64,000 nt of DNA from positions 64,001 through 128,000 of the IMG/VR virus record IMGVR_UViG_3300030109_005647; one strand, 5' to 3'. This stretch comes from a virus. The translations under genes were made by a program, and so were the position numbers. Shown piece by piece: positions 42,130 through 60,838 of the stretch. Under the pieces are notes generated by a model that was not told the DNA's origin, did no database searches, and saw only the letters and a program-made list of their open reading frames with translations. Numbering within the stretch: the stretch's first letter is position 1; each line of letters starts with the position of its first letter.

Positions 42130-42141
42130 TTTAGCTCTCCT

Positions 42142-42375
42142 TTATAGCGTGTCGGGTTGATCGGTAATGACATCCCAATCTGTTGACGACGTTGTGTTGT
42201 CATTAAGTTTCACTAGCGGCGGATTTAAAACAACTAATCCTTCTGGTGAGCTTGTCATCTTAAAATTCTCCAACATTGGAACAATATCAGATTGCTCCAT
42301 TAGAGATTTTTGCAGTGCCATCATTAGCGCACCAATAGCTTGTTTTGATAAATTTGTATGTTTTACTTCAGTCAT
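42142..42375 (-). CDS. Hypothetical protein
   Basis: 77 aa; AAGGAG RBS. Confidence 0.6.
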   Translation of the reverse strand: MTEVKHTNLSKQAIGALMMALQKSLMEQSDIVPMLENFKMTSSPEGLVVLNPPLVKLNDNTTSSTDWDVITDQPDTL

Positions 42376-42384
42376 GTTTACTCC

Positions 42385-43224
42385 TTATTCTTCACTAACT
42401 GCGCGACCTTTAAGCTGTTCCCAGTCTTTTTCTGGTCTTACTTCTAAATTTTTATTCCAAACCGATTTTAACACTGCAGGGTTCATACCTGCTGATTCAG
42501 CAAAACTGATCAAAGCGTTGATATCTTTTGGAAAACACGAGCCTCCAAATCCAAATTTGCCATCAGGACCAGGGGAGCTAAAATGTGTTTTACCTATTCT
42601 TTGGTCGTAAAGACCATACTCTACTACTTTATCATAGTCTACGTTTATTTTTTCACATACTTGTCTAATTTCATTAGAAAAACTAACCTTTGTAGCCAGA
42701 AAACAATTAGTAAAGTATTTTACCATCTCTGCTGTGTTTGATCCTGTTTTGATTATGGATGCCGTAGGATAACACTTTCTATAAAGATTCTTAACTTTTG
42801 TAGTTCCAGGTCTTGGACCACCAATTATAACTCTATTTTGATTTTTAAAATCATTAATAAAATTAGCCTCGGTTAAGAACTCTGGATTAAATAACACTTG
42901 TAAATTGTTACATTCTTTGTTAAATTTTTCAGTTGTTCCTGGTAAAACTGTAGATTTTATAACTGCAATGTTGTCGTTGCCAAAAGAGTCTAGCTTGTAA
43001 ACCGTTTCAGAGACGATAGATAAGTCACAGTCTCCACTTTTTCTCATCGGAGTGGGAAGGCAAACAAAAATAATCTCTGCCCTCTGGCTTAATTGTTCAA
43101 GAGAATCACAGGTTGATTGTTTAAATTTATCATAAGTTTCAATCTGAACAAAGTCCTTAAAGCCTTCTCTTATGGCAGTTCCAACAAAACCTTGTCCTAC
43201 CACTCCAATCGTATTATTTTTCAT
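42385..43224 (-). CDS. ugd: UDP-glucose/GDP-mannose dehydrogenase family (short form)
   Basis: GQGFVG, CLPTP, IKSTVLPG, NPEFL, AEMVKYFTNCFLATKVSFSNE, catalytic GFGGSCFPKD. Confidence 0.9.
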   Translation of the reverse strand: MKNNTIGVVGQGFVGTAIREGFKDFVQIETYDKFKQSTCDSLEQLSQRAEIIFVCLPTPMRKSGDCDLSIVSETVYKLDSFGNDNIAVIKSTVLPGTTEKFNKECNNLQVLFNPEFLTEANFINDFKNQNRVIIGGPRPGTTKVKNLYRKCYPTASIIKTGSNTAEMVKYFTNCFLATKVSFSNEIRQVCEKINVDYDKVVEYGLYDQRIGKTHFSSPGPDGKFGFGGSCFPKDINALISFAESAGMNPAVLKSVWNKNLEVRPEKDWEQLKGRAVSEE

Positions 43225-44077
43225 TTTTCAACCTCTCAAAGCACTTATTTATTCCTTCTTTAATTGCAACTGATGTTTGCCAGCCAAGTTGTTTTATTTT
43301 ATCAGTCTTAGCACACGTAAATAAAACATCTCCCTTTCTCTTTCCAACATAATCGAACCTAACACTTGGTAGGTTTTTTTGTACTATTTCTTTAATTTCA
43401 TTTAAAGAAATATTTGTCCCGGTGCCAATGTCGTAATGCTCGCCATTAAAATCACCCTTTCTTGTCATCGCAAAAATGTTTGCACGCACAGCATCAGAGA
43501 CATGAAGCATGTCTCTACACTGATCTCCCTCTCCTGTGATATACGGATTTACGCCCTTTCTTATACTGTCCATCCAGTTGGCAATTGCAGTGCAATAAGG
43601 ACCGTCTACAGTCTGATCTTCCGAGTATACATTAAAATATCTAAGAGATACTGTATCTAAATCATATAAATCTGAATATAGTTTGCATTCCATCTCGGAT
43701 ACTAATTTTTGTAAAGCATAGGGACTCGTAGGTCCATTACCATTACCCACAACAGAAGAAGAGCTAGAATAGATAACCCTTTTTGCTCCAACTTGTTTAG
43801 CAAAATCTAAAACACAGCTTGTGCATAAAACATTATTTTCCATCGTTATAACAGGGTTTTCTACACTATAAGCAACGCGTGGGAAACAAGCTAAATGAAA
43901 AACATATTCTGGTTTGAAATTATAGTAATGAGGGTGAAATTTATCCTTGAGGTCTTTTTTTATGTCATGACCTTCTACCAGATCGATACCTAATACCTCG
44001 TGACCCGCTTCTTCTAGCGCTTTAACGAGATGGCTTCCTATGTATCCGCGATGACCAGTAACCAAACATCTACTCAT
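43214..44077 (-). CDS. NAD-dependent nucleotide-sugar epimerase/dehydratase (extended SDR)
   Basis: LVTGHRGYIG, SSSSV, YALQK (YxxxK), LRYFNVY, RDMLHVSD. Confidence 0.9.
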   Translation of the reverse strand: MSRCLVTGHRGYIGSHLVKALEEAGHEVLGIDLVEGHDIKKDLKDKFHPHYYNFKPEYVFHLACFPRVAYSVENPVITMENNVLCTSCVLDFAKQVGAKRVIYSSSSSVVGNGNGPTSPYALQKLVSEMECKLYSDLYDLDTVSLRYFNVYSEDQTVDGPYCTAIANWMDSIRKGVNPYITGEGDQCRDMLHVSDAVRANIFAMTRKGDFNGEHYDIGTGTNISLNEIKEIVQKNLPSVRFDYVGKRKGDVLFTCAKTDKIKQLGWQTSVAIKEGINKCFERLKNEK

Positions 44078-44095
44078 TTAACTCTCCGTGTTTCT

Positions 44096-44103
44096 TAAAT
44101 ATT
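44096..44103 (-). promoter_or_regulatory. Candidate promoter variant AATATTTA (overlaps a TATAAT)
   Basis: Intergenic; TATTTA ends 19 nt before the 44077 start. Confidence 0.4.
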
Positions 44104-44125
44104 ATACATCATCTCATTTAATAAT

Positions 44126-44950
44126 TTAATTAATTTTAAATTGATGTGGCTTATCCCAAAAACCTTTAGCTTCGACCATTCTCTCTTCTTCGTACACCAG
44201 CTTCTTATTCAAAACATACTCTTCAAAATTTATTATTGGATAAACATCTAGCTTTGTTTTTTTAGATGCATTAAAAAATTTAACGCTTTTGTCTTTTTCT
44301 AAAAACTTTTTATATGCAAGAGAATGTATATTTCTCATCTGATTATTTGCTTTGTATACTTTATTTTCTGGTATATCAGCCCTATAAGATTTATCAAAGT
44401 GGTTAGGATCGCTGGTTGAGCCTCTATCTGCCGTCCAGCCTAAATCGGCGCCTACAAAAATAATTTCATTAAAGCCCATATAATAAGATAACTGTAGTGC
44501 TAAACTTATAGTAGTTGCGCTCTTGTCAATCCTGTCAACAACATTGGTTGAAAAGCAGCTTTCTAGAATATTTCCAGATGTATCCGGCTTGTTTTCTGAC
44601 ATAGAATCAAACCATTTTATTTGTGGATATTTATTTTTAGGATCGATAGTTGGTTTAAAGATTCGTGCTATAAAGGATGTTGTTTTTGGATCAGACGCGG
44701 ACCTTCTTACTGATTCTGTCCAAGCAGAACCCCACACTGGGTTTCTAACATTAGTAGAAGAAAATAAATAATAAGTTGGTTTCCATTTTGGATTCTTATC
44801 ATAAATAAGAGAAATTCTATTCATAGCTATTGTTGTTTCATTTTTTAACAAATCTAAATTAGTTTCAGCTAGACTTGGACCATTTGCTATGATAAAAACC
44901 CTCTGTGCAGTGTGCCTGTCTTTAAATTGTTCAAATACTGTATTTTTCAT
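44126..44950 (-). CDS. DUF115/Maf-GT42-like (CMP-ulosonate-type) glycosyltransferase domain protein
   Basis: FIIANGPSL, IAMNRI, ALQLSYYMGFNEIIFVGADL, DPNHF. Confidence 0.72.
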   Translation of the reverse strand: MKNTVFEQFKDRHTAQRVFIIANGPSLAETNLDLLKNETTIAMNRISLIYDKNPKWKPTYYLFSSTNVRNPVWGSAWTESVRRSASDPKTTSFIARIFKPTIDPKNKYPQIKWFDSMSENKPDTSGNILESCFSTNVVDRIDKSATTISLALQLSYYMGFNEIIFVGADLGWTADRGSTSDPNHFDKSYRADIPENKVYKANNQMRNIHSLAYKKFLEKDKSVKFFNASKKTKLDVYPIINFEEYVLNKKLVYEEERMVEAKGFWDKPHQFKIN

Positions 44951-44951
44951 T

Positions 44952-45647
44952 TTAACTTTCCTCTGTGAACAACATTACTGTTCTTTTATAGTTTAAACCA
45001 CTTTTTCTATCCTCATAAGTGTGATAACCGTTTATCCCATTTTTTTTCATTCTATCGATTACATACTTTTTTGTTGGCGTATAATGCAATCCGTTCCACT
45101 CATTAGATTTAGAATTGCCACCATGGTATTTGTATGTTGATTCTTCACTATCTAAAGTTTTAAATTCTAATATTATGTTTTTGCCTATTGCAGCTAGCTT
45201 ATCTAAACAAGCATCCATATTTGGTACACGATGTATTAAACCCAAACCAAGAACTATATCAAATTTATTCTTTTCGTCTAATTTGTATAAGTCAAACACT
45301 TCAAATTTAGTGTTTTCAAGACCATAAACATCTTTAGCAAAATTTGCTCTTTCTATTCTTGTATGATCGGGGTCGATGCCGTAAACCTTTGACATTTCTT
45401 TTTTCGCTGACATTATAGAAAAATATCCGTCACTGCATCCTACATCAATCATTGTCTTTCCTTTTGGAGATAGGCTTTCTACAATTGGATCTAATCTTTT
45501 CCATTTGTTTGTATTGAACCCAGGGCTGTTCACTTTATTGCTGACGGTTTTTATTCCCCCTGGAAACTCGTATAAATGATTCCAAGATTTTTCTAATTTA
45601 AATTTTTTTACTTTTTCTTTTATTTCTTCCTTTGTGTATTTAGACAT
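44952..45647 (-). CDS. Class I SAM-dependent methyltransferase (CmoB/DUF1698-like)
   Basis: MIDVGCSDGYFS, GIDPD, FDIVLGLGLIH. Confidence 0.85.
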   Translation of the reverse strand: MSKYTKEEIKEKVKKFKLEKSWNHLYEFPGGIKTVSNKVNSPGFNTNKWKRLDPIVESLSPKGKTMIDVGCSDGYFSIMSAKKEMSKVYGIDPDHTRIERANFAKDVYGLENTKFEVFDLYKLDEKNKFDIVLGLGLIHRVPNMDACLDKLAAIGKNIILEFKTLDSEESTYKYHGGNSKSNEWNGLHYTPTKKYVIDRMKKNGINGYHTYEDRKSGLNYKRTVMLFTEES

Positions 45648-46353
45648 TTAAATAAACCTCCATAATTTTTTGTGCCTCGGCAGATGTTAGAAATCCACTT
45701 CTGACGGACGCCCAAGACGATGCATCTTTACTATCGTATACTTCCAAAAAGTCACTCTTTTCTCTACCTTGTAACTCTCTTGGTTTTGCAAATTTTACGC
45801 TCTCATAAGATACAGGTAACTCTTGATCTGGAAACAAAGCAAAGAACACAGAAGTGCGATGATTACCACTAACAATATAAAATTTTTTTAAATTATTTTT
45901 TTTAATAAAGTATCCAGTGATATTTCCTTGTTTGCGATCAGGAAATTGTTTTGGACTATATCCGTTTTCTCTAAAAGAATCAATTAGTTGCTTTATCTTT
46001 AAAACTTGTTTATAAACAAAATCTTCTGTTTCAAAGCTTATAAACGCAATATCAGTCATTGTTTTTAAGGGTTTTTTGTAAATCCAAGGTAAAAATGGAT
46101 TAGTCACTGTATAATTTTTCAGTTTATCAACCGCATTGTATAAACTATAAATTGAATCTGGAGAATATGAAATGTAATGTTTATACAGTGGGCTTTCCTT
46201 GTAATAAGAAGCGGCATTAAACTTAGTTTCTGCGCTCTCCATATCGATAATTTGTTTTGCTGTTCTATAACAGGGGTTTTTTTCAACACCGATCGGTATT
46301 CTACTTAAATTACAAACATCGGATTTTTTTATTTTAATTAATTGACTATTCAT
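45640..46353 (-). CDS. Hypothetical protein with a ParB/Srx-like motif
   Basis: LIDSFRENGY..FYIVSGNHR (cf. DGxHR). Confidence 0.55.
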   Translation of the reverse strand: MNSQLIKIKKSDVCNLSRIPIGVEKNPCYRTAKQIIDMESAETKFNAASYYKESPLYKHYISYSPDSIYSLYNAVDKLKNYTVTNPFLPWIYKKPLKTMTDIAFISFETEDFVYKQVLKIKQLIDSFRENGYSPKQFPDRKQGNITGYFIKKNNLKKFYIVSGNHRTSVFFALFPDQELPVSYESVKFAKPRELQGREKSDFLEVYDSKDASSWASVRSGFLTSAEAQKIMEVYLNV

Positions 46354-46357
46354 TTTT

Positions 46358-47422
46358 TTATTTTAGATAACTACTAAGCTTGTCATTTCTTTTTATAGAA
46401 ATTGCGGCGCAAGATGGATATGGATTAGTGGCAGCAAAATCATTAATTATAATCCTCTTACTATGATTACAATTAGAAATAATTGTCTTGTATGTTATAC
46501 CTTTTTCTTTTAAGTATTCTTTAACCACGCTTAAGTATTTTTCTGGTCGAGCCGTCATAAATATAATTTCGTTTCCTGTATCTGACAAGCGTTTTAAGAT
46601 TTCAACATTTTCTTCTATAGGTTTGAAGTAGTTGGACCAGTTCCTAGAGCCATATTTGCCACAATTTTCCAGTATAACACCGTCTATATCAAAAACATAT
46701 GTATTATGTTTTTCCATTTCTTTGTACCACTCATTTGCAGTTCCCCAATCTACATAACGATCAGCTTCAACATATTCAAAAATATGAGAATTACAAATTA
46801 TCAAATAAGATATGACATGGCTGACGTATATTTCATTTTCATGCTTATATACATCACTGGAACATATATTTTCATATGCTCGAACAAAATCTATTGAGTC
46901 AACACAATATACACCCAAGCAAATTATGTTAGATACCATCTCTTTTTCTAGAATATCAACAATAACATCATCATCGTTTTTAATGATAAAACTCTTTTGT
47001 TGCAATCTATCCACCTGTACATTGTGATCTATAGTTAAACCTACAATGTGATCTTTTTCTGGTAGGTAATTTATTTCGACTACGCAGTCAGAGTCTTTTA
47101 TTGTTAGCTGTCCAGATAGATTTGCCTGCTGAATGGTCTTATAAACCGTTTCAGCAGAGCAAGTGGTAGGCTTTTCTAGTATTATAATCTCAACCGTATC
47201 CCCAAAAGCCTGATTTAGAATAATATCTGCTTCATAAACATCACAGTGTTCTCTCAAAACCGTAATTATTGTTTTCTCATATCTTTGATAATTCGAAGAG
47301 GTCAAAACCTTTTCAATCATTAAATGTCCAGATGGATGTGTAAGCAACCATTTTGGTTTCATGTTGGGATACCTGCTTGACTTACCAGCGGCAGGAATAA
47401 GTAGGGTTTTTTGTTTTAACAT
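46358..47422 (-). CDS. Sugar-phosphate nucleotidyltransferase fused to a HAD phosphatase
   Basis: LLIPAAGKSSRY..KPKW, DSD, DWGT; C-terminal FDIDGV, MTAR, IIND. Start at ATG 47422. Confidence 0.82.
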   Translation of the reverse strand: MLKQKTLLIPAAGKSSRYPNMKPKWLLTHPSGHLMIEKVLTSSNYQRYEKTIITVLREHCDVYEADIILNQAFGDTVEIIILEKPTTCSAETVYKTIQQANLSGQLTIKDSDCVVEINYLPEKDHIVGLTIDHNVQVDRLQQKSFIIKNDDDVIVDILEKEMVSNIICLGVYCVDSIDFVRAYENICSSDVYKHENEIYVSHVISYLIICNSHIFEYVEADRYVDWGTANEWYKEMEKHNTYVFDIDGVILENCGKYGSRNWSNYFKPIEENVEILKRLSDTGNEIIFMTARPEKYLSVVKEYLKEKGITYKTIISNCNHSKRIIINDFAATNPYPSCAAISIKRNDKLSSYLK

Positions 47423-47423
47423 T

Positions 47424-48221
47424 TTATGGTATACCAAATATCTTACCAAGATATTGTAATCTATTTTGTAAGTATTTTAAAGTTGTTCCATTTGAATATG
47501 GAATAATTCTAAGTAGATTTAAGACTAAAAGTCTTTTTGAAGCTTCAATCTCTTCAAAGGACATTTCTTGTAGCATCTTGTCATACAAATGTATTGTCTT
47601 TATTAAAGGCTTGTCCATGTTATGACGCCATGACCAATCTAAGACGACATCTTGCATTATTTTTGAATAGTCAACATACTTTGTCTGTATAAAAGAGTCA
47701 AGAAAATCAATGAAATATATTTTATTTCTATAGATTAATATATTTTCAAAAGTAAGATCGCCATGATTTTGCGATACCGGCGTTTTTGACCAGTCATGCT
47801 CTTTACAATAACTATAATATTTATTTGTATAAGAGGGTAGTCGAGAAGTTAATGAACTTAACTTCTTGTTTATTAGGGGTGTTATATCTTTAGTGTTGTC
47901 AACTTTTTCTTGTAGATACTTGTAGATTTTATCAAAAATAGGCATTATGTTATTTATGCTGCTCAAGGATACATAGTTGTGCATCGGTGCGCCGCGAATA
48001 AATTCCATATCGAAATAAAAAAGATTGTTAGTATAGCCTGATTTGTAAACAATTGGCGTGTGGAAATCACTATGATTAAACGATTGTTGCTTTTCCATCT
48101 GTTTGAATAAACGAGAATTGTATTCCTGAGAGGAAGATACTTTTCGAATAAACTTTTTTCCGGCTTCCTCTTGAAGATAAATGTGGCATCCAGAGTGCCC
48201 GTTCATTTTTTTTATTATCAT
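47424..48221 (-). CDS. APH/choline-kinase-like phosphotransferase
   Basis: GHSG loop, IRK, HGDLTFENI, FIDF. Confidence 0.8.
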   Translation of the reverse strand: MIIKKMNGHSGCHIYLQEEAGKKFIRKVSSSQEYNSRLFKQMEKQQSFNHSDFHTPIVYKSGYTNNLFYFDMEFIRGAPMHNYVSLSSINNIMPIFDKIYKYLQEKVDNTKDITPLINKKLSSLTSRLPSYTNKYYSYCKEHDWSKTPVSQNHGDLTFENILIYRNKIYFIDFLDSFIQTKYVDYSKIMQDVVLDWSWRHNMDKPLIKTIHLYDKMLQEMSFEEIEASKRLLVLNLLRIIPYSNGTTLKYLQNRLQYLGKIFGIP

Positions 48222-48238
48222 CTGTGCCTTGTTTGATG

Positions 48239-49168
48239 CTATCTTCCTTGCGGTCTGTCATAATTAAGATAATTCAACGAATTTAGATCTAAATCTTTTT
48301 CAAAATATAGGTACCTTATTGCTGTTTTAACTTTTGATTTCTTAATATCAGGAGGATGGTTTACAATTTCATTACTCCAGTTTTTAATCCAGCCCTGCTT
48401 TTCAGAGGTATGAATAGGATCTCCGTGTTTCCAAGTGCCTTTCCATTTGTTATAGAAATAGTTCCAAGCAGTTTTTTTATATATACCACCTCTACTGTTA
48501 TGCCATATTTTTTGTTGTTCTGCGTCATCGGGCTTTCTTTTTATGATGCTTTCACCCTTTTGTTCTACTGTAACAAAATTACGATCCTCAAAAGACTCAA
48601 TCGGATAATCTGGCTCATGGTTTAATTTAATGCCATGGACTATATCGTTAATAGAAGATTTCTCTTTATTAAAGATCAACGCTCTCAAAAAATAGTCTGT
48701 CTCTTTGTATTGTGCAGGTAAGTTTTCATCCCACATGCCAATTTTTTTGATTGCCTCTGGTCTGTAAGCAGTGACCGTATCTCCACATAGCCCTGTGACA
48801 AAACTATAACCTTTTTTATTAAAAAGTGCATCTAGATTCGAACAAAAATTTGGGTGGACCACGGCATCATTTTGTAGTGTCACTAGTATCTCTGTATCTG
48901 GATTTTTTAAGTCCACAATGCCATTAATAAAAGCTTGATTATAATTCTCAGATACGTTTCCATTTGACCAATCAGGTCTTAGTACGTTATGAAGAACGTT
49001 AACTTTTTCTTTAAACTCTGGGTCTAGGTTAAATTCAGAGTGATTGTTTATGATATTAACTTCTGTATTTTTTACAGTTGAAAAGTCAGATTTAAACAAT
49101 TTACGCAGCGTATCATTGAGCACTTCACATCTTTTGTATGTAACAATATAAACTTTTATTTTTTTCAT
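48239..49168 (-). CDS. GT-A (GT2-like) glycosyltransferase
   Basis: VYIVTYKR, IINNHS, LQND, IGMWDE...ETDYFLR. Confidence 0.7.
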   Translation of the reverse strand: MKKIKVYIVTYKRCEVLNDTLRKLFKSDFSTVKNTEVNIINNHSEFNLDPEFKEKVNVLHNVLRPDWSNGNVSENYNQAFINGIVDLKNPDTEILVTLQNDAVVHPNFCSNLDALFNKKGYSFVTGLCGDTVTAYRPEAIKKIGMWDENLPAQYKETDYFLRALIFNKEKSSINDIVHGIKLNHEPDYPIESFEDRNFVTVEQKGESIIKRKPDDAEQQKIWHNSRGGIYKKTAWNYFYNKWKGTWKHGDPIHTSEKQGWIKNWSNEIVNHPPDIKKSKVKTAIRYLYFEKDLDLNSLNYLNYDRPQGR

Positions 49169-50142
49169 AAAATATTACTATCTTTTAGTTGTTCCAAACA
49201 GCCACTCCAGTCAGAGAAACGAAAAGCTTTGTCGTCAATATAAGCCACCGCTCTAGGCTTTTCAGCAGTAACTTTTGCGACATATTTTGATGCATTATGT
49301 TTTTCTAGCCACTCCCATATCATTTGCGTTCCAGTTTTTCCATTTACCAAGCCGCGATCAGATTTCGCTTTGCAGGTATAAATAATAACATTATATTTTT
49401 CAGCCAATGTTGCTAACGCCTCTATCGCTCCGTCAACCGGTGAATCATAAATTGTTCCATCATAATAACCCTTTGAGCATTGGTGGACCACTCCATCAAA
49501 ATCGACACCAATATTTACTTGCTCATCAGGATACGAGTATTCCCTGATTTTAGATCTCCAATGTTTAGCGTTTTTAATATCATCTGGAGAATTTTTGCCG
49601 ATAGGAGGGCACACGTTTCCAGATCCATGGGTGAGTTCATATGTCAGCAAAAGAGTTAGCACTTCTGAGGTATGATAATATTCTGCGCCTAAGATGACCT
49701 GTGTTAAGTTTGGGATCTGTATTTTGATAGGTCTGCTAGTGATCATTGCTATATGCATATTGTTATCACCAGCCCACTGTAGGGCTTTAATAATGTCAGT
49801 TGAGCTTCCAGAAGAAGAAACACCCAAAACCAAAGATTTTTTCATTTGAGTTTTAGTTTTTGTAGTGGTTCTTGCTCTGAGCCAGTCAACCATCCACTGT
49901 TCAAAACTCGTATCATTAATTAAAGAAGTTGCGACGATAGCAGAGCCAGGGCAAATTGCGTTTTTTGTGCCATTTGACAATCTAGTCATATCTACTGCTG
50001 CGTGATCCGCAATGGCTAAATTACCGCCATGTCCTAATACATATATATCATTAGACGAATTGAATTTTTTTTGAAGCTCAGTCCAATCGCCTGAATTAAC
50101 GACTTGTACAAATTTTTCTCCAATATTCTCAAAATCAAGCAT
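49165..50142 (-). CDS. GmhA-like SIS sugar-phosphate isomerase fused to a HAD phosphatase
   Basis: LGHGGNLAIADH, GVSSSGSS (SIS); GVDFDGV, YTC, KP...YIDD (HAD). Confidence 0.8.
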   Translation of the reverse strand: MLDFENIGEKFVQVVNSGDWTELQKKFNSSNDIYVLGHGGNLAIADHAAVDMTRLSNGTKNAICPGSAIVATSLINDTSFEQWMVDWLRARTTTKTKTQMKKSLVLGVSSSGSSTDIIKALQWAGDNNMHIAMITSRPIKIQIPNLTQVILGAEYYHTSEVLTLLLTYELTHGSGNVCPPIGKNSPDDIKNAKHWRSKIREYSYPDEQVNIGVDFDGVVHQCSKGYYDGTIYDSPVDGAIEALATLAEKYNVIIYTCKAKSDRGLVNGKTGTQMIWEWLEKHNASKYVAKVTAEKPRAVAYIDDKAFRFSDWSGCLEQLKDSNIL

Positions 50143-52800: not shown

Positions 52801-52802
52801 TG

Positions 52803-53546
52803 TTAATATTCCATAAAATTCTTTTTTACTACTTCTAAGGCTTGTTCTAGCGTTTGTATTTCATAAGTACCCTGGTTGATTCTAGTGTCTGCGTGCATAT
52901 GATATATTCTAGGGGTTAGGTGCTCTTCGCCAAAAGTGTGATGAAACTTTCTTTGCTTTTCTCTGTTTGCCTTACTTCTAATGTTATATTCTACAGGAAA
53001 AACATAAAATTGAAGACCGTTTTGTATAGCCTCCCACAGTGATACTCTAAAGGATGGTTGATCCCATGGACAATGTTGATAATATTTGTAAAAATTTTCT
53101 CTCCATTTTTTAAACAAAGTGGTGACTTTATCGCTTTTATTAAACACCATAACACCAGTATTTACCTCAGAAAAAGAATAAGGAATGTCTCCATACTCTG
53201 GTATGGCTTCTGAATACTTTTTTCTTTTCCTAGCTAGATCATGAGTAGCCGCAAGATCAAAGTTGTCTAATAAATCATACATATCTTCTATATTATAATC
53301 AATAATCGTATCTGTATCCAGGAACAGTGTTTTTTCATATGGTGACATTATAATATAATCAATTTTAGGTCTAAGATGTTTTGCTCTTATTAAAACACAC
53401 TTATCTACATATTCAGAATCGACTGGTTTATCTACAAATGCCGTAATATGTAACTCTGGATTGTGTTTTTTTACAGATTCTGCAGATATCAACATTTCTT
53501 TTAAAAAATTTTCTCCAAAAGCAATATACAATACGCCTCTTTTCAT
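52803..53546 (-). CDS. GT-A glycosyltransferase (GT8/nucleotide-diphospho-sugar transferase-like)
   Basis: LFLDTD (DxD), VNTGVM, WDQPSF, EYN. Confidence 0.78.
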   Translation of the reverse strand: MKRGVLYIAFGENFLKEMLISAESVKKHNPELHITAFVDKPVDSEYVDKCVLIRAKHLRPKIDYIIMSPYEKTLFLDTDTIIDYNIEDMYDLLDNFDLAATHDLARKRKKYSEAIPEYGDIPYSFSEVNTGVMVFNKSDKVTTLFKKWRENFYKYYQHCPWDQPSFRVSLWEAIQNGLQFYVFPVEYNIRSKANREKQRKFHHTFGEEHLTPRIYHMHADTRINQGTYEIQTLEQALEVVKKNFMEY

Positions 53547-54541
53547 TTTTTTATGCTCCTAATGTTAAAATAAAGTCTCTCTGCCCAAGAAATAGGATTA
53601 TATAATCTATCAAATTCTTCTTTTGCGTTCTTCGCAACTTTTGTTCTGACTTTTGGGTCTTTATATTTTAATATCCCTTTTATCCAGCTTTGCTTATTAA
53701 AAGCAATGGTCCCGCATCTTGGGTCTCCCAATATGTGGAAATTACTTGGGGTTAAATCAGTCACTATAGGTATTCCTAGTTGATGAAAAACAAATGACCT
53801 GCCGGCATTTGATTTATTTTTCATACGAATTACGTGATCAGTAGAGTGCATACCATAATGGTCATTTATTGGAAAGTTATGATTTTTCATATCAATGTAA
53901 GTTACATTTGGTACAATTCCAACGTCACAAGTCATTAAGTTTTGTTTGATTGTATCCAAGCCCCACTTCTTGATAGCGATATTTTTAATGTTTGGTCTGC
54001 CATATTGCCAATTTATATTCTCGTGAGTCGTGACGACTAATAATTCAATGTCACAAATCTTATCAATATACTCTAAAGCCGATTTTAAATGGGGCTCGAA
54101 TTTACTTAGGTGAGGGTAATGCCCGTGATATCCAATTCTTAAGACATCTTTCTCAATATGTTCTTTTTGTTTACAATTTTGGAACATATTTTCTATGAGG
54201 GGAAATAAAAATACATTTTCATAAGTTGACAAACTATCCATTTCTTCTAATGAGCCAACTATGACAAAATCAATATTTAAATTTTTCTTTTCAGCAGATA
54301 AGTTAATAACGCCAACAGTTCTTTCAGGATATTTTGTTTTTATTTTTGAAGCAGCTTCTGCATCTTCTTTACCACAAATGATAATATCATGATCTTCAAC
54401 CCTGCTATTTGGATTGGCTATCTCTGATTGTATCCCTGCTTGTTTAAAATAATTGTTTAAATCGTGAACCCATATTCTATACGAGCCAACATTTATGAAA
54501 GGTGTGGTGCAATAAAATAATATTTTTTTTTCTTTTGACAT
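53543..54541 (-). CDS. GT-B glycosyltransferase (divergent)
   Basis: GSYRI, IGYHG, CDVGIVP, KSNAGR..LGIPIVT. Confidence 0.65.
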   Translation of the reverse strand: MSKEKKILFYCTTPFINVGSYRIWVHDLNNYFKQAGIQSEIANPNSRVEDHDIIICGKEDAEAASKIKTKYPERTVGVINLSAEKKNLNIDFVIVGSLEEMDSLSTYENVFLFPLIENMFQNCKQKEHIEKDVLRIGYHGHYPHLSKFEPHLKSALEYIDKICDIELLVVTTHENINWQYGRPNIKNIAIKKWGLDTIKQNLMTCDVGIVPNVTYIDMKNHNFPINDHYGMHSTDHVIRMKNKSNAGRSFVFHQLGIPIVTDLTPSNFHILGDPRCGTIAFNKQSWIKGILKYKDPKVRTKVAKNAKEEFDRLYNPISWAERLYFNIRSIKK

Positions 54542-54545
54542 GATT

Positions 54546-55436
54546 TTATTTTTTAATAAACTCTTTGTATTTATTTGATACTTCTTTCATATCATAACTC
54601 ACTTCATGTATATTTTTAATTTTTTTATCAAAACTAAGGACTGGTGGTTTGTATAATTCAACAGGCTTAAAATCCCAATCTTTTTCCTGTATTACAATGG
54701 CATCCAAACCAGCTATTTCTTTTGTGCCGCCGGCGGAAGAGCAGATAATTTGGCATCCACTAGCCCTTGCATCAACAACAACATTAGGGCAGTGATCAAG
54801 CCAAGCTAAATGCAGAAAATATTTTGATCTCTTGTATAAAGAAATTAAGTTAGGTACGGATATCTCTCCAACATAAAATATTCTTTCACTTTTTTGTATT
54901 TTTTTATCTGATTTTCCTGCGATTACTAGGCAATCTTTTTCAGAGGAGTGTTCTAAAAAATATCTAATATTGTCGTCTAATCTTTTATGTGGACGCCATG
55001 ATGCGGCGCAAGACCAAACATTTTCGAATTTATCTATTTTTGGATGACTCAGAGGTGTAACAGTTTCAATAAAATCTGTGTCAGCGCCATTGTGGATTAC
55101 AGCAGAATATTCATGCTCTCCGAAATATTCTGTTGTTAGCTTTTTATTAAAATTAGATTGAAATATAACACCGGTGGAATGGTGATATGTTTTTTCAATA
55201 TTTTGATTTTGTATTTTATACGGTTGAGATAAATTAAAGTATATCCCATCTAATCTCTGAAAAAGAGGAATTTTGCTTTGAAAATCTCTTGTTTCTATAA
55301 AGCATAGTCTAGCATCGGCGGTAGAGGTTTTGTTAAATGTGACACCATTTTTTTTGCCATATTTAACTAATTTTGATGCGAAATGGTTAGGTCCCGAAGC
55401 GCTTTGAAGGTTTACGTTTTCTAGTTGTATATTCAT
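54546..55436 (-). CDS. GT4 glycosyltransferase
   Basis: SGPNHF, IHNGAD, RPHKR, DHCPNVVVDARASGCQII..GGTKE. Confidence 0.85.
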   Translation of the reverse strand: MNIQLENVNLQSASGPNHFASKLVKYGKKNGVTFNKTSTADARLCFIETRDFQSKIPLFQRLDGIYFNLSQPYKIQNQNIEKTYHHSTGVIFQSNFNKKLTTEYFGEHEYSAVIHNGADTDFIETVTPLSHPKIDKFENVWSCAASWRPHKRLDDNIRYFLEHSSEKDCLVIAGKSDKKIQKSERIFYVGEISVPNLISLYKRSKYFLHLAWLDHCPNVVVDARASGCQIICSSAGGTKEIAGLDAIVIQEKDWDFKPVELYKPPVLSFDKKIKNIHEVSYDMKEVSNKYKEFIKK

Positions 55437-57052
55437 ATTCTTTTATATGGAGTTTTACTCCTGATTTTGTCTGCCAATTCAGATTGTTTTTTTGCCTTAA
55501 TCTTATCTACACTTAAGGGGTTTTGTCTATTGTAAACATAAAGCGCTTCTGGTATATATCGTGATCTCTCTGCAGACATCTCTAATAGTGGCAACATTAT
55601 AGCTTGATCATAAGTCATTTCGAAATATTTACCGCTCTCTTTAAGATCTTTTTGATCTAACTTTTCCCACAGGCAATATTTAAAAGTTCTAAGATGTGAT
55701 GCTCGCCAACTGTCTTTTCTAAACGAATTATTTTTGATAATCTCCTCTGGGTATTCAGAAGGCTCTACGCCTCTTTGACCGGTTGGGTTATATATATAAC
55801 TTCCATAAGTTAATAGTGTATCTGTCGTGTATTCATCACTTAACCTAGATAAAACCGCCGTAGATGATAACCAATCATCGCCATCCATCAATATTACGAT
55901 ATCCTGTTTTTTTATACTCTTCTCATTTAAGATGTAAGCAATGTTTCCCAAAGCATACTTTTTTTCTTTATTTTGTATTAATTCAAATCGGGTATCATCT
56001 CTTATCATTTGCTTGATTATATCTGAGGAGTTATCAGTCGACATATCATCAACCAAATAACACTTAAAATTAGTATAACTTTGACGCCTAATACTGTTTA
56101 TACATTTGTCAATCCACTTTTCACAATTATAAAAAGGAACAACAAAAATAAATTTATCATTTTCAATATGTGTTTCCTTTGGCTCCGGTAAAGATAAATT
56201 TTCAAATGCTAATTTTTCTATTTGTGTCCAGAATATTTCTGTTCGTTTTCTCAAATAATATAAAGTGTTTTCTCTTGTTTGGAACCAAGGCTCGTCTTTG
56301 TGTTGAACATTTTCATTTAAAATCAACTCACAGTCCAATAATTTGGCTTCTATTGTCATCCTTGGGCAAGTATCACCAGCATTTGGAAAAAATATAATTC
56401 CTTTGGAATTTGCTAGCTTTTGTAAAAGTTCCTTATGACTCAAACCCCAAACCAATTCATACTCTAAGTTATTCTCTTCAGCATATGCTTTGGATTCGCT
56501 TACGCCTTTAATCCAAGAAGGTGAATTTAAAATTAAATATTTATTATTTTTGTTTTTTGTATCTAGAGAACAAATGTAATCCAATGTTTCATTTGAAAAA
56601 ACAGAGCTTAAGACTTGACTCCTATCGTTATCTAAAAATGGAAATTTATTTCTATAATGATCAAATTGATTTCTAGACATCCACCAAGCCATCTTTGCAT
56701 TGTTTAAAAATATTGAGGTTATTTTTCCTTGACTTGTTAATTCGCAATTACAAGTTTCACCCTCTAATATGTGTTTACCTGGGGATCTATATTTACAATA
56801 TTTATAATCATACTCCAGAACAGAGTAATTTAAATTTTTAGCAGCAAATAAAAGGACTTGTTGCGATGCGTTGGCAAAATTGCCAAAAATCCAAAAAGCT
56901 TTGGTATTTTTTTTCATTAATGAAATTAAGCGTGGATCTGAGGACAGCACCTTATTGCAAGGAAAATAAGATGCTTTAATCAATGCTTCAGTTGTTAACT
57001 CGGCGCCTCCCTCATAATGTTCAACAAATAAATCGGATACAAAAAAAATCAT
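55433..57052 (-). CDS. Fused GT-B (GT4-like) and GT2 glycosyltransferase
   Basis: GGAE..KG..DTCPRMTIEAKLLDC, then VVPFYN, VDDMSTD, MDGDD, YVYNR. Confidence 0.85.
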   Translation of the reverse strand: MIFFVSDLFVEHYEGGAELTTEALIKASYFPCNKVLSSDPRLISLMKKNTKAFWIFGNFANASQQVLLFAAKNLNYSVLEYDYKYCKYRSPGKHILEGETCNCELTSQGKITSIFLNNAKMAWWMSRNQFDHYRNKFPFLDNDRSQVLSSVFSNETLDYICSLDTKNKNNKYLILNSPSWIKGVSESKAYAEENNLEYELVWGLSHKELLQKLANSKGIIFFPNAGDTCPRMTIEAKLLDCELILNENVQHKDEPWFQTRENTLYYLRKRTEIFWTQIEKLAFENLSLPEPKETHIENDKFIFVVPFYNCEKWIDKCINSIRRQSYTNFKCYLVDDMSTDNSSDIIKQMIRDDTRFELIQNKEKKYALGNIAYILNEKSIKKQDIVILMDGDDWLSSTAVLSRLSDEYTTDTLLTYGSYIYNPTGQRGVEPSEYPEEIIKNNSFRKDSWRASHLRTFKYCLWEKLDQKDLKESGKYFEMTYDQAIMLPLLEMSAERSRYIPEALYVYNRQNPLSVDKIKAKKQSELADKIRSKTPYKRI

Positions 57053-58332
57053 GCGTAGTTTGAAATTTTAGAGAATAGATCATCTATTTCTTCATCTGAA
57101 ATACTTTCGACAAAATACTCATCAATAATTTCTTTAAATTTATTAATTTGTTTTTCACTATTAAATTCTTCTAGAATCCAATCTTGAAGTTTTTTTGCTT
57201 GAGATTTAAATCGTCCATAATCTTTATAAACTTCTCTTAGCTTTATTTTACAAGAACCCTGCTGTGGATATGCCCACATAGAGTCTTTCTGTATCACTCC
57301 ATCCCAAACAGCGTCTGGGGGGACCGGCTGAAGGTCATAATCAATTCTAGCAAAATGAGGTTTGTTTTTCTCTCTACCTTTTTTATCTTTTGTCGGTTTA
57401 TAGAGAAAATCCAAGTGACCAGACCAATCTGTTGCTAAAACAGGTAATCCACAATATGCAGCCTCAAAAAGTGGTAGACCAAACCCCTCTCCGTGTGTTA
57501 AGCTTATTAACGCATTAATGCTCTTGTGAGAATACAAACAATGCATCTCTTCATCTGTTAGATCACCGTGAAGAAGATAAACTTTACATTCTCTATCTTT
57601 ATACTGTGGTCTAGAAAGAAGTTTTTCTAATTCTTGAGTTACTGCATTTTTATCTAATATACTGCCGCCTCTAACAAATGTTTTAACAACTAGTCCGACC
57701 TCTGGATTGTCTATAAATTCTTCAACAAACCACTTCACCGTCGAGCCTAAATTTTTGCGTGGACCCCACTGTGCGACTGTAAGAAAATTAAATTTAGTGT
57801 TTAAATCTAGATCAAGATCTGAAGTTAAATTATTTAGAATATCTTCTTTTACCGGGTAATGAACAATATCAACTTTTTTAGCACATTTTAATATTAAAGG
57901 TTGATTTGTATTTCTGTCTATTGCCTCGTATATAGTATTTACTAAACCAGCTTTTGAATGCTGAGATATGGTGACTACTCTATCCATCTCATTGCACTTT
58001 TGTAACCATATCGGTGCTACTTTTGTTGTTTCAATGCCCGCTGTAACTCCAATGTTGATGGGAGCCATTTTTTGCCACTCATTTGGAATTGTAACCTGCA
58101 CGGACATATCATATTGCCCTCTTTCTTGGCTATATAATGCTGTCTTTTTAATAATTTTATCCATCCAGTCTCTTTCTTCTGAATTTTCCCATATCCAAGA
58201 AGATTTGCCCCAGTTAACCGGGAGCAAATAGATGTCTAGACCTTTAATTTCCCTAAGAACGCGCAACACAAAACGACAATGTTCGCCGTATCCAGTTCGT
58301 GTTAATGCTGGTCCTCTTACTAGAACTTTCAT
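57049..58332 (-). CDS. GT4 glycosyltransferase
   Basis: RTGYG, PRKN, GEGFGLPLFEAAYCGLPVLAT..SGHLDF. Start at ATG 58332 after GGAGG. Confidence 0.9.
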   Translation of the reverse strand: MKVLVRGPALTRTGYGEHCRFVLRVLREIKGLDIYLLPVNWGKSSWIWENSEERDWMDKIIKKTALYSQERGQYDMSVQVTIPNEWQKMAPINIGVTAGIETTKVAPIWLQKCNEMDRVVTISQHSKAGLVNTIYEAIDRNTNQPLILKCAKKVDIVHYPVKEDILNNLTSDLDLDLNTKFNFLTVAQWGPRKNLGSTVKWFVEEFIDNPEVGLVVKTFVRGGSILDKNAVTQELEKLLSRPQYKDRECKVYLLHGDLTDEEMHCLYSHKSINALISLTHGEGFGLPLFEAAYCGLPVLATDWSGHLDFLYKPTKDKKGREKNKPHFARIDYDLQPVPPDAVWDGVIQKDSMWAYPQQGSCKIKLREVYKDYGRFKSQAKKLQDWILEEFNSEKQINKFKEIIDEYFVESISDEEIDDLFSKISNYA

Positions 58333-59600
58333 TAGGCTACCTCCTTGATGGTCCAACGTTTTGAGTATTTTCTAGTCGACCAAGAGCCTTTCTCTTCATG
58401 TAATTTAGTCATTACATCAACCCAAGTTTTTTTAAAGTTTTCAAAATTATAATTTTCCATAACGTGGGCGCGACCAAGAAGACCGATTTGCTTTCTCTCT
58501 TCTTCAGAAAGGTTGTAAATTTTTTCCATCGCGGCGACCACATCATCACCATTAAGTCGATCCTCATATATCCAAGGAATTTGTTGAGATCCGATAACAG
58601 CCCTGGATGATGGGTAAAGAGCTACTCCAAATTCTTTTTCATCAGCTTTAATTTGTTCTTGGAGACCTCCTGTCATATTAACAATGATAGGAGTGCCACA
58701 GGAAAGCGATTCTAAAGTTGCCAATCCAAAACCTTCAGCATCAGAGATGTTCACCGTGCAGTCAGATATATTGTACATAAAAGATAATCTCTTTAAATCA
58801 ACTTTTTGCTGACTGAACAGGATTTGACCCTCAGTTAGATTTAAATGTTCTATTATGGCTTGCAGATCTTGACCATTCGGGTCTTTTACATCAGTATGCA
58901 TAACTAAACATGCTTTATCGTGACCAACTTTATCTAGAAATTCCTTAAACCAAAAAATTAAAGAACCAGATTGTTTTCGTCGCGCATTTCGATTATTCCA
59001 AAAGAAAACAAATTTATTGGGATCATAATATTCCCCAAATACTTGTTTTTTAAACTCTTCCAGTTCTTCTTGATTATCAACAGGAGCAAAAATTTCACTA
59101 TTAACCGCATGTGGGATGTATTGAGATTCTACACTTGGTGCTACAGTTTTAACAATATCATCTGTCACTTTTGAAATTGTTGCGATAAAATCATTCGACT
59201 CGTAAAGTTGTTTATTATAAGTGGGATAAGGATAATTATCCCAAACATGGTAATAAACCATAGGCATAAGAGGACGGATTTCATTTTCCATTTCCCACAA
59301 CCAGCCCCAAAAACGGGGATCAGTCATAAACCAAATAATGTCTGGCTTTTCTTGTCTAATAATCGAGCGGACCATCTCCTGATTGCCGTATCCATCAACA
59401 GGGAACATAAGCCAATCGTCTCCGTATTGTTCAGTCTTGATTGGGTCATAGTTTGGGTGTTTGATTGCGCCACCAAAAGAACGAATTTGGAACTTACCAG
59501 TTTTTAATAACGCTTCACAAATATACCTAGTTTGAGTTCCAACGCCACTAGGACTAAGAGGCATATCACTAAGAGTGAAGACCTTAATTTTTTTATCCAT
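58332..59600 (-). CDS. GT4 glycosyltransferase
   Basis: PSGVG, IPHAV, NRNARRK, AEGFGLATLESLSCGTPII..GGLQE. Confidence 0.9.
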   Translation of the reverse strand: MDKKIKVFTLSDMPLSPSGVGTQTRYICEALLKTGKFQIRSFGGAIKHPNYDPIKTEQYGDDWLMFPVDGYGNQEMVRSIIRQEKPDIIWFMTDPRFWGWLWEMENEIRPLMPMVYYHVWDNYPYPTYNKQLYESNDFIATISKVTDDIVKTVAPSVESQYIPHAVNSEIFAPVDNQEELEEFKKQVFGEYYDPNKFVFFWNNRNARRKQSGSLIFWFKEFLDKVGHDKACLVMHTDVKDPNGQDLQAIIEHLNLTEGQILFSQQKVDLKRLSFMYNISDCTVNISDAEGFGLATLESLSCGTPIIVNMTGGLQEQIKADEKEFGVALYPSSRAVIGSQQIPWIYEDRLNGDDVVAAMEKIYNLSEEERKQIGLLGRAHVMENYNFENFKKTWVDVMTKLHEEKGSWSTRKYSKRWTIKEVA

Positions 59601-59607
59601 TTAAACC

Positions 59608-60828: not shown

Positions 60829-60838
60829 ATTGCTCCTT

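Follow-up and report, generated by a model that had tools for sequence, protein, structure and literature searches.

A conserved glycosyltransferase core with exchangeable sugar cassettes, and without membrane parts, in a marine myovirus lineage: a candidate system for virion glycosylation

The 64,000-nucleotide stretch of DNA analysed here (hereafter the window) spans bases 64001–128000 of IMG/VR record IMGVR_UViG_3300030109_005647, a single viral contig of 138,595 bp that is 78% complete by CheckV and belongs to a marine myovirus not yet in culture, a distant relative of Flavobacterium phage immuto. Nearly all genes of the contig lie on one strand, and ~12% of it is devoted to a single glycan locus on the minus strand at window positions 42385–59600, made up of 19 contiguous, co-oriented open reading frames (ORFs) of 198–539 amino acids each, most of which overlap their neighbours by 1–8 nt, with a widest gap of 48 bp. 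A preliminary description of this DNA had counted 17 contiguous, co-oriented genes; the contiguity and orientation hold, and the count is 19. Nine ORFs are glycosyltransferases (GTs) with ten GT domains between them, all nine of which had been picked out beforehand as GT-like and are now confirmed by hidden Markov model (HMM) searches, by fold or by protein atlas; the two methyltransferases proposed at the same time are also present (44952–45647 and 52204–52800), and the remaining eight ORFs make or modify sugar donors. At the upstream end of the locus stand three genes that form its core:

58332–59600, minus strand: GT4a, core retaining-type GT-B glycosyltransferase of 422 amino acids (PF00534, 49.5 bits, cut-off 26.4)
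57049–58356, minus strand: GT4b, second core GT4 (PF00534, 31.9 bits)
55433–57052, minus strand: fusion of a compact GT-B domain, X (residues 1–285, by fold), with a GT2 domain (residues ~300–539; PF00535, 68.6 bits)

The likely start of GT4b is the Met codon at 58332, which overlaps the stop codon of GT4a by 1 nt. Both proteins keep the E-x7-E motif that is the mark of active GT4 enzymes, with E289 and E297 invariant in GT4a, and E282 invariant and E290 nearly invariant in GT4b. The best PDB sequence match of GT4a is chlorovirus protein B736L (E 3e-8 over residues 189–395, a weak likeness), followed among named relatives by BshA (E 3e-12 in NCBIfam, E 4e-7 in PDB), MshA and sucrose-phosphate synthase. 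Domain X, the N-terminal 285 residues of the fusion protein, has no HMM match and no PDB-sequence match; its model (predicted local distance difference test, pLDDT, 96.4) gave 97 PDB fold matches at E ≤ 1e-3, all of them GT-B enzymes among the matches listed, and hhalign aligned it with the cassette enzyme GT4c at 79.5% probability (E 1.5e-5). A homologue of X follows GT4b immediately in 44 of the 66 related loci that have any ORF at that place, fused to a second domain in 24 and standing alone in 20.

GT4a is predicted to bind GT4b, forming a heterocomplex. The modelled pair reached an interaction prediction score from aligned errors (ipSAE) of 0.86, against 0.32 for the best of three controls; of 80 solved complexes 58 attain the same mark, as do 2 among 110 mismatched pairs, counts that are rough since our own alignments were used. 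Model runs share at least 96% of contacts with a partner pLDDT of at least 89, and the modelled interface uses the conserved C-terminal tail of GT4a, in which W416 and E420 are nearly invariant.

Downstream of the core follow 16 genes, here called the cassette:

54546–55436, minus strand: GT4c, 296 amino acids (PF00534, 32.5 bits)
53543–54541, minus strand: GT-B fold glycosyltransferase without Pfam family, 332 amino acids (no HMM match; pLDDT 96.3)
52803–53546, minus strand: GT8-like GT-A glycosyltransferase (PF03407, 26.2 bits, cut-off 22; PF01501, 23.5 bits, cut-off 24.3)
52204–52800, minus strand: DUF579/glucuronoxylan-methyltransferase-like sugar O-methyltransferase (PF21729 IRX15/GXM, E 2.2e-30; TIGR01627, E 5e-29)
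51462–52244, minus strand: GT29-like (sialyltransferase-type) transferase (PF00777, E 1.2e-8, 35.1 bits, cut-off 23)
50812–51465, minus strand: CMP-ulosonic acid synthetase (PF02348, E 3.8e-15; PseF-like, E 9e-21, and KdsB-like, E 3e-3, both below equivalog cut-offs)
50135–50845, minus strand: HpcH/HpaI class II pyruvate aldolase (PF03328, E 1.9e-19; best PDB match YfaU 2-keto-3-deoxy sugar aldolase, E 7.5e-20)
49165–50142, minus strand: SIS sugar-phosphate isomerase (GmhA-like) with a C-terminal extension (gmhA TIGR00441, E 4e-7; PDB phosphoheptose isomerase, E 5.7e-5)
48239–49168, minus strand: GT2-like GT-A glycosyltransferase, weak (PF00535, 16.5 bits, below cut-off; protein atlas 0.99 to viral GT2 clusters)
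47424–48221, minus strand: APH/Bud32-like small kinase (weak matches to Bud32, E 5e-5, CotS and APH(3'))
46358–47449, minus strand: putative nucleotidyltransferase N-terminal domain with a HAD phosphatase C-terminal domain (HAD-family matches E 1e-5 to 3e-4, all below cut-offs)
45640–46353, minus strand: unknown protein of 237 amino acids (no Pfam or NCBIfam match; unnamed, mostly viral clusters in the protein atlas)
44952–45647, minus strand: class I S-adenosylmethionine methyltransferase (PF13847, E 2.8e-15)
44126–44950, minus strand: MptE/Maf-like (DUF115) putative ulosonic-acid transferase (PF01973, 37.7 bits, cut-off 34.6)
43214–44077, minus strand: NAD-dependent nucleoside-diphosphate (NDP)-sugar epimerase/dehydratase of the short-chain dehydrogenase/reductase (SDR) type (PF01370, E 2e-44; 68% identity to the gene at the corresponding distal position of complete relative G001)
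42385–43224, minus strand: short UDP-glucose/NDP-sugar 6-dehydrogenase of 279 amino acids (TIGR03026, 196.6 bits, above cut-off; PF03721 and PF00984 only)

Among the cassette transferases, the 332-residue GT-B protein has at least 500 PDB fold matches at E ≤ 1e-3 (the best listed being SenB, PimA, MshA, GtfC and BshA) and 403 homologue representatives, the GT29-like protein has weak PDB matches to ST8Sia-III and ST6Gal1, and the MptE/Maf-like protein weakly resembles the Kdo-III transferase WaaZ (E 9e-6, far below cut-off). The 237-residue ORF was also considered as a ParB-like protein from a GNHR motif and an atlas score of 0.85, a lead only, since no family was found. The short dehydrogenase consists of the N-terminal and central domains without the C-terminal UDP-binding domain, a form kept in G001 (69% identity over 281 aligned columns for the 279-residue query).

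These genes would give an acidic and methylated chemistry. The dehydrogenase and the SDR enzyme would yield UDP-uronic acid-type (UDP-glucuronate-type) donors. The HpcH aldolase is a candidate for the condensing step towards a 3-deoxy-2-ulosonic acid and, with the SIS protein and the cytidylyltransferase, would by analogy make up a pathway of the 3-deoxy-D-manno-oct-2-ulosonic acid (Kdo) type in which a pyruvate aldolase replaces KdsA, the product presumably feeding the GT29-like and MptE/WaaZ-like transferases. The APH/Bud32-like protein is a putative sugar kinase, and together with the GmhA-like domain and the nucleotidyltransferase–HAD protein it could provide an NDP-heptose-like donor; the SIS protein scores 30 bits against gmhA, where the cut-off is 209, its C-terminal extension appears HAD-like from a DxDG motif read by eye, and the putative nucleotidyltransferase was called from an N-terminal G-x-G-x-R-like motif read in the same way. 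In plants, the GUX/GXM pair adds glucuronic acid and then 4-O-methylates it, and the adjacent GT8-like and DUF579 genes of the cassette appear to mirror that pair.

No product of the locus resembles a membrane protein. No 19-residue Kyte–Doolittle window in the 19 ORFs reaches 1.6 (maximum 1.58), in keeping with the earlier impression that none has an obvious transmembrane (TM) helix; in the whole contig no ORF longer than 150 amino acids has more than two hydrophobic segments, and among 529 island ORFs from 80 related loci only one, of 127 amino acids, has two. HMM searches of five records (this contig and four complete relatives) returned no priming transferase of family PF02397 (Bac_transf) or PF00953 (Glycos_transf_4), for which 10 and 12, respectively, of the 14 control genomes gave a match, and no member of PF01943 (Polysacc_synt) or PF04932 (Wzy_C), other Wzx/Wzy families being covered only by the hydropathy scan; PF00005 (ABC_tran) gave only P-loop matches below cut-off, e.g. 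PhoH, in the five records. Across all the membrane-family searches, 10–14 of the 14 control genomes were positive. The lack of a flippase, Wzy, ABC transporter or priming transferase, asserted beforehand for the locus, holds for the families searched in this contig and the four complete relatives as well.

When two complete relatives were scanned end to end, the only polytopic ORFs were a protein of ~970–996 amino acids with hydrophobic segments in its C-terminal half, putatively the tape-measure protein, and a 206-residue protein with five segments; no Wzx/Wzy-like ORF was seen. The 206-residue protein belongs to the PAP2 superfamily (PF14378, E 9e-16), lies far from the island (L090:409-1029 in G001; 155183-155806 in G004) and may act on the host envelope as a lipid-phosphate phosphatase. 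It has no tblastn match in this 78%-complete contig and, having been picked up in the relatives, serves as a positive control for the hydropathy scan. The features that define a surface-polysaccharide locus, namely an initiating phosphoglycosyl transferase and a flippase, polymerase or ABC exporter, were not found here. The glycan chain is built inside the infected cell, most plausibly by a phage-autonomous route that uses no membrane parts.

Comparison with related loci divides the locus into a conserved core and a variable cassette. Relatives of GT4a occurred in 150 of 156 candidate IMG/VR stretches, of which 80 loci were kept and joined with those of immuto and Microcystis phage Mel-JY01 into a set of 82, scored by tblastn (E ≤ 1e-5, at least 40% of query length). 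GT4a has a match in all 82 and its upstream neighbour, a PD-(D/E)XK nuclease, in 81; matches to x222 and GT4b occur in 76 each, to PhoH in 74 and to the X–GT2 fusion in 54. From there the counts fall steeply: GT4c 12, the GT29-like transferase and CMP-synthetase 5 each, the 332-residue GT-B protein, GT8-like protein, DUF579 methyltransferase and HpcH aldolase 4 each, and the SIS protein 2, with none for the GT2-like, kinase-like, nucleotidyltransferase–HAD, 237-residue, class I methyltransferase and MptE-like ORFs within 10 kb of GT4a. Loci end 10 kb beyond GT4a, and some contigs sooner, so that counts for distal genes are lower bounds, including those for the SDR enzyme (at least 16 of 82) and the dehydrogenase (at least 7 of 82); in G001 these two, at 68–69% identity, close the distal end of an 18.1-kb island.

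Downstream of GT4b, the 529 ORFs of at least 100 amino acids fall into ~232 clusters (30% identity, 60% coverage). A Pfam scan of 150 of the 232 cluster representatives, most widespread first, covered 441 of 523 cluster-in-locus occurrences and pointed to sugar chemistry; among the top 25 of 139 families were Epimerase (10), RmlD_sub_bind (10), GDP_Man_Dehyd (9), GT2 (9) and DegT aminotransferases (7); several methyltransferases, formyltransferases, cytidylyltransferases, radical SAM proteins and GT47 were also present. Closed islands span ~4.2 to 18.1 kb. Phages that are 85% identical in GT4a do not have the present cassette, and four loci at 66% GT4a identity have eight of its genes in common at 58–72% identity, from which it follows that modules are exchanged within the lineage. 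In Rhodothermus phage RM378, the GT pair is present and the cassette absent.

The core is conserved to a degree expected of central phage functions: among 71 ORFs shared with two complete relatives, GT4a ranks seventh in conservation, after a 162-residue ORF, portal, UvsX, DNA polymerase, terminase and PhoH, and GT4b ranks 25th. GT4a matches at least 7,571 protein clusters (90% identity) at E ≤ 1e-5, most of them of marine metagenome origin, and thus the system is widespread in the sea; the best 120 of these clusters all reach 70% identity or more and have marine metagenome sources. Among 185,579 prokaryote species represented by one genome each, a GT4a relative was found on 11 contigs from metagenome-assembled genomes (MAGs), all on a PhoH–x222–nuclease–GT4a backbone and none in a cellular polysaccharide locus. 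These contigs (L104–L114) carry unrelated taxon labels, namely Pelagibacter (2), Woesearchaeota (3, two from one bin), Maricaulis, Flavobacteriales, Gammaproteobacteria, an uncultured proteobacterium, WOR-3 (a 2.85-Mb 'chromosome') and Neomarinimicrobiota; they are probably phage contigs placed in bins through binning or assembly artefacts and carry no evidence on hosts. In one of them (L111), ~2.9 kb is inserted between nuclease and GT4a (7112–10001) and ~3.3 kb between GT4a and GT4b (11320–14576), breaking the tight core.

In the direction of transcription, the gene order is PhoH, small ORFs, the PD-(D/E)XK nuclease and the glycan locus, then a 77-residue ORF, a zinc ribbon, a late-sigma-like gene, muramidase, baseplate and very large fibre-like proteins, and after these terminase, portal, tail tube and the replication genes. 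Three features frame the locus:

60912–60921, minus strand: phage-type promoter-like motif ACTAYTTATW, 51 nt upstream of a 153-residue ORF that precedes the nuclease
59608–60408, minus strand: PD-(D/E)XK nuclease (PF12705, E 3.6e-18), adjoining GT4a upstream; immuto and Mel-JY01 likewise have it next to their GT pair
40915–41664, minus strand: late-sigma-like (gp55-like) gene (phrog_234, E 5.7e-8), marking the downstream end of the island

The late-sigma-like gene is 51–56% identical in G001 and G004, where it directly follows the islands. The preliminary description had placed the locus just upstream of the sigma factor and baseplate block, and the late-sigma-like gene, muramidase and baseplate wedge do lie directly downstream. 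A 255-bp gap after the dehydrogenase was considered as a transcription-unit boundary and rejected, since it holds a 77-residue ORF (42145–42375, no family) with a ribosome-binding site. No near-identical phage turned up when the locus was compared by megablast with 50,697 phage records, and the closest deposited phages, all distant, are immuto, Mel-JY01, an uncultured 484-kb phage and RM378, with 27–36% identity in GT4a and, for the first three, 29–32% in the baseplate wedge.

Just downstream of the late-sigma-like gene, a 758-residue protein (38354–40630) carries an N-acetylmuramidase domain (E 5.5e-11) and a weak GDSL/SGNH hydrolase match (E 4e-4, below cut-off), a combination that may represent a baseplate-hub lysin joined to a glycan esterase. 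Among the baseplate and fibre genes are five very large ORFs at 18642–28163 (3173 amino acids), 32258–37351 (1697), 14157–17579 (1140), 10857–13994 (1045) and 2526–5684 (1052). Neither the 758-residue nor the 1697-residue protein has a tblastn match in the related loci or two complete relatives, and so this region is also highly variable. Elsewhere on the contig (G000, contig coordinates) lie a GroEL-like chaperonin (4727–6304; phrog_5725, E 2.5e-136), a Mom-like DNA modification protein (6355–7269, minus strand; phrog_1384, E 1.3e-19; 54–66% identical in two complete relatives) and, outside the window, a 336-residue ORF (134501–135511, minus strand) matching phrog_1211, '2-aminooxy adenylosuccinate synthetase' (PurZ-type, E 1.7e-72), with the ACTAYTTATW motif 35 nt upstream; the last may serve the replacement of adenine by 2-aminoadenine or else be a PurA-like metabolic gene.

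Over the whole contig, the gene strand has 18 copies of ACTAYTTATW and the opposite strand one, against an expectation of 1.9, and most copies lie 11–90 nt before gene starts, including those of tail-tube, head and baseplate genes. Copies in the window are at 63237, 60921, 32243, 28437 and 9028. Among the related loci, the motif lies upstream of PhoH in 35 of 74 and ~1.3 kb upstream of GT4a in 22 of 74, and island DNA has almost none of it (a single copy in 472.5 kb). Promoters resembling TTGACA-N17-TATAAT were seen only before genes at contig 1–25.5 kb, the replication end, which suggests two promoter classes in the contig. The T4 late promoter TATAAATA was rejected, as it is not positioned before genes here, and in the locus generic sigma70 and terminator scans gave counts within those of shuffled sequence (96 vs 83.5 ± 7.9 and 13 vs 9.0 ± 3.4, respectively).

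The cassette was recovered nearly letter for letter from a second marine sample of the same study as the probable source, in contigs that tile 41024–60900 with 0–6 differences each, and parts of it were found in other marine runs. In run X16, a very small public data set (3.1 million letters) that bears a coded organism name, seven contigs of 151–327 bp match it at 45660–48380 with 0–5 differences. One contig in each of runs X2 and X3, also marine samples, joins 42333 to 57014, skipping 14,680 bases with a shorter side of 21 letters, which hints weakly at a coexisting variant whose cassette differs or is missing.

What the chain is built on is the central question, and sugar identities, order of steps and acceptor are given below as we infer them. 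We tentatively favour, short of an even chance, a phage-encoded acceptor protein, most plausibly a virion protein. A phage-borne acceptor is favoured by a core that is phage-specific and matches morphogenesis genes in conservation, and by the fact that no wzx/wzy-type gene has been co-captured in hundreds of cassettes. The GT pair is present in phages of Flavobacterium, Microcystis and Rhodothermus, which belong to three different phyla, and its retention across such hosts favours an acceptor that is either brought by the phage or universal. We also count in favour of a virion acceptor that the best solved relative of GT4a is chlorovirus B736L, and that an upstream ACTAYTTATW is of the class preceding tail-tube, head and baseplate genes. 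Virus-encoded glycosylation of virions has precedent in chloroviruses and mimiviruses. A precedent in mycobacteriophages is cited in PMC12619734.

Under this virion-protein reading, the system would work in two parts. The lineage-conserved GT4a and GT4b, translationally coupled, predicted to form a heterocomplex and usually followed by X, would place the first sugars on one invariant acceptor. The swappable cassette, here of 16 genes, would then supply UDP-glucuronate-type donors, a CMP-activated 3-deoxy-ulosonic acid via the HpcH-type aldolase and possibly an NDP-heptose-like donor, while its six further GTs and two methyltransferases would extend and methylate the chain, the GT8 and DUF579 pair giving an O-methyl-uronic acid element. 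Virions would leave the cell bearing a glycan coat, acidic and methylated, whose make-up varies from strain to strain. It is possible, if somewhat doubtful as a whole, that an abundant ocean myovirus lineage carries in this way a strain-specific acidic, methylated virion glycan, a viral 'O-antigen' primed by GT4a–GT4b(–X) and finished by the cassette in the cytoplasm, with chemistry that is out of the ordinary for phages: a GT8 and DUF579 pair as in plant xylan, an aldolase route to CMP-ulosonic acid, and a GT29-type transferase.

Several observations weigh against a virion acceptor. No ORF of the contig, which is only 78% complete, has a Ser/Thr-rich stretch (at least 50% in 30 residues), and a glycosylated virion protein is not among our results. 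The GT pair sits with DNA-metabolism genes (PhoH and nuclease here; ribonucleotide reductase, Erf and helicase in RM378), and nearness to tail genes is lost in distant relatives. ACTAYTTATW also precedes non-structural genes (PhoH and the PurZ-like gene), and a strong sigma70-like match (11/12) lies upstream of the island on the minus strand at 60602–60575. The gene content is in part that of lipopolysaccharide (LPS) cores (GT4, GT8, WaaZ-like, GmhA-like and CMP-ulosonate synthetase), and the GT4a–GT4b complex score may partly be memory, since solved GT-B pairs of the same kind (GtfA/GtfB) exist. Fold matches were rejected as a guide to the acceptor, as the GT-B matches mix protein, lipid, small-molecule and DNA acceptors. 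Nearness to the tail module, pointed out earlier, is a weak argument, as the homologous GT pair does not adjoin baseplate genes in immuto, Mel-JY01 or RM378. The preliminary description had further argued from the missing exporter to a cytoplasmic acceptor, probably a virion protein; membrane parts are indeed lacking across the lineage, but the step from 'no exporter' to 'virion' is unsafe, because neither LPS-core assembly nor TarP-type decoration needs a dedicated exporter.

The strongest rival places the acceptor in the host envelope. Soluble phage GTs at the cytoplasmic face of the inner membrane could, as a doubtful but substantial possibility, modify host lipid A-core or an undecaprenyl-diphosphate sugar made by a host priming enzyme and leave export to the host. 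Waa-type core assembly on lipid A and the decoration of host polymers by prophage TarP proceed without a dedicated phage exporter, and the host's MsbA/Lpt, or its own Wzx or ABC exporter and ligase, might, with the same reservation, carry the product out. The infected cell would then conceivably show an altered surface, e.g. one that excludes other phages or prevents progeny from binding to debris. The cassette has families of LPS core and O-antigen loci (GT4, GT8-like, a weak WaaZ likeness, GmhA-like, CMP-ulosonate synthetase, UDP-glucose dehydrogenase and epimerase), and its hypervariability between conserved flanks is that of O-antigen loci; yet no wzx/wzy/wzz-like gene occurs among the 529 island ORFs, which is unexpected for pieces of host O-antigen loci, and the GT4a family was seen only on phage backbones and in no cellular polysaccharide locus. 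The complete relatives encode the five-TM PAP2 lipid phosphatase, and so the lineage touches envelope lipids. The association of the GT pair with DNA-metabolism rather than tail genes in distant relatives, the ACTAYTTATW copies before non-structural genes and the sigma70-like match at 60602–60575 also accord with an envelope target. Against this, the core GT pair is kept across hosts of three phyla with very different LPS cores, and a lytic phage would presumably gain only slowly from changing newly exported LPS. A change in host O-chain is the published interpretation of GT-rich islands in pelagimyophages and cyanomyophages, as given in PMC7029224 and PMC12801897, and exporter-less prophage enzymes that alter Acinetobacter capsule sugars are reported (PMC12053666; PMC6586298). 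Computation cannot separate a virion-protein from a host-envelope-glycolipid acceptor.

Some other soluble cytoplasmic molecule (a small metabolite, a non-virion phage protein or a host cytoplasmic protein), yielding an intracellular or released glycoconjugate, is an unlikely acceptor. After B736L, the closest named relatives of GT4a (BshA, MshA and sucrose-phosphate synthase) use small soluble acceptors, SenB and BshA are top structural matches of the other two GT-B domains, and RM378 has the GT pair alone, without a cassette; but the relatives' matches are weak and reflect general GT-B likeness, and nine GT ORFs with hundreds of cassettes indicate a long, variable oligosaccharide under diversifying selection, which an intracellular metabolite would hardly account for.

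Phage DNA, named earlier as an alternative acceptor, would have the GTs glycosylate a modified base in the manner of T4, RB69 or MT/5mYOX clusters. In every lineage examined the GT pair stands beside a nuclease and other DNA-metabolism genes, and the fold matches include T4 alpha- and beta-GT. Phage GTs that act on DNA are known, with di- and trisaccharides and with pathways for heptose and UDP-arabinose (10.1101/2023.12.21.572611; PMC13326640), and the routes to glycosylated DNA set out in these two sources need a thymidylate-synthase-family enzyme, or a C5-methyltransferase with a TET/JBP dioxygenase. Neither ThyA-family PF00303 nor TET/JBP PF12851 was found in this contig (78% complete) or in five relatives that are 100% complete by CheckV, and C5-methyltransferase PF00145 was likewise absent from this contig. 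Published liquid chromatography–ultraviolet–mass spectrometry of immuto virion DNA, in the part of that report available, gives dA, dC and dT as canonical and dG as replaced by 7-(formylamino)methyl-7-deazaguanine (fdPreQ1), and the same part reports no sugar-bearing nucleoside for this phage, which has the GT pair and 11 further annotated cassette genes. With base modification in the lineage already provided for by Mom-like and PurZ-like genes, the missing ThyA and TET/JBP genes and the sugar-free immuto nucleosides make DNA a very improbable acceptor.

GT-rich hypervariable islands of marine myophages are already known (PMC7029224; PMC12801897), as is virion glycosylation in other viruses. 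In the literature searched, a limited collection, there was no prior description of the GT4a–GT4b–X core, its predicted complex, the lineage-wide lack of membrane parts or the cassette chemistry, and no report, for any marine myovirus, of virion glycosylation. Interchangeable cassettes behind a conserved priming core imply that an exposed sugar is under strong diversifying selection. Should that sugar be on the virion, virus-encoded virion glycosylation would reach beyond giant viruses and mycobacteriophages to phages that infect marine bacteria, and views of how phages adsorb, decay and are grazed in the ocean, and of how sticky their particles are, would change; should it be on the host, the locus would represent a large and common system of superinfection control or receptor masking. 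The host O-chain interpretation of similar marine myophage islands is itself not known to have been tested, and since this core is also present in immuto, which is cultured on Flavobacterium sp. LMO8, the acceptor question is directly testable. Either way, the cassettes are a rich source of soluble GTs and sugar-nucleotide enzymes.

Among known systems, waa-type LPS core loci share with the present one soluble or peripheral GTs (GT4, GT8 and, here by weak likeness, Kdo transferases) and the lack of a dedicated flippase; their Kdo- and heptose-type donors may have counterparts here. They differ in that an HpcH aldolase stands here in place of KdsA, which was not found, that the GmhA, WaaZ and KdsB likenesses are all far below curated cut-offs, and that the GT29-like and DUF579 genes are foreign to waa loci; the 19 ORFs have no Pfam match at E ≤ 0.01 to WaaA or a GT9 heptosyltransferase, for which no genome-wide search was run. 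The GtfA–GtfB system of serine-rich repeat adhesins likewise pairs two adjacent GT-B proteins, here a predicted heterocomplex known from a model only, and the other GT-B domains of the locus have GtfA/B, GtfC and Gtf3 as fold matches. Unlike GtfA–GtfB, both partners here keep E-x7-E, leaving no non-catalytic partner, and no Ser/Thr-rich substrate is encoded (no ORF with at least 50% Ser/Thr in 30 residues).

The host-recognition clusters of pelagimyophages and cyanomyophages are closer in setting, being non-syntenic islands of GT and sugar-nucleotide genes near the tail genes of marine myoviruses (PMC7029224; PMC12801897). Here, too, a non-syntenic, GT-rich island occupies a fixed site in otherwise syntenic genomes. 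Those islands, however, belong to Tevenvirinae-like phages and lie between VrlC and gp14 together with tail-fibre genes, whereas the present site is between the nuclease and GT core on one side and the late-sigma-like gene on the other, has no fibre gene inside and is anchored by a core of two to three GT-B domains. The lineage is nearest to immuto, Mel-JY01 and RM378, not to T4-like cyanophages and pelagiphages.

With mycobacteriophages, the locus has in common phage GTs without phage export genes; Freeman et al. are said to have found in 2023 that such GTs modify capsid and tail-tube proteins in the cytoplasm. Mycobacteriophage systems have few genes, compared with 19 here, and a different host, and no mycobacteriophage was among the 12 phage records matched by GT4a in tblastn. 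Virus-encoded soluble GTs with donor synthesis and no membrane route are also shared with chloroviruses (PBCV-1 type) and mimiviruses, whose soluble GTs are accompanied by sugar methyltransferases and by sugar-nucleotide enzymes, UDP-glucose dehydrogenase among them, without a membrane export route; B736L, the best solved sequence relative of GT4a, is a chlorovirus protein. The differences are that the present virus is a bacteriophage with no known virion glycoprotein, and that the B736L likeness is weak (E 3e-8). In chlorovirus and mimivirus glycans the inner part is conserved and the outer parts are variable, and in the marine lineage described here, exchange of the cassette among close relatives is far freer.

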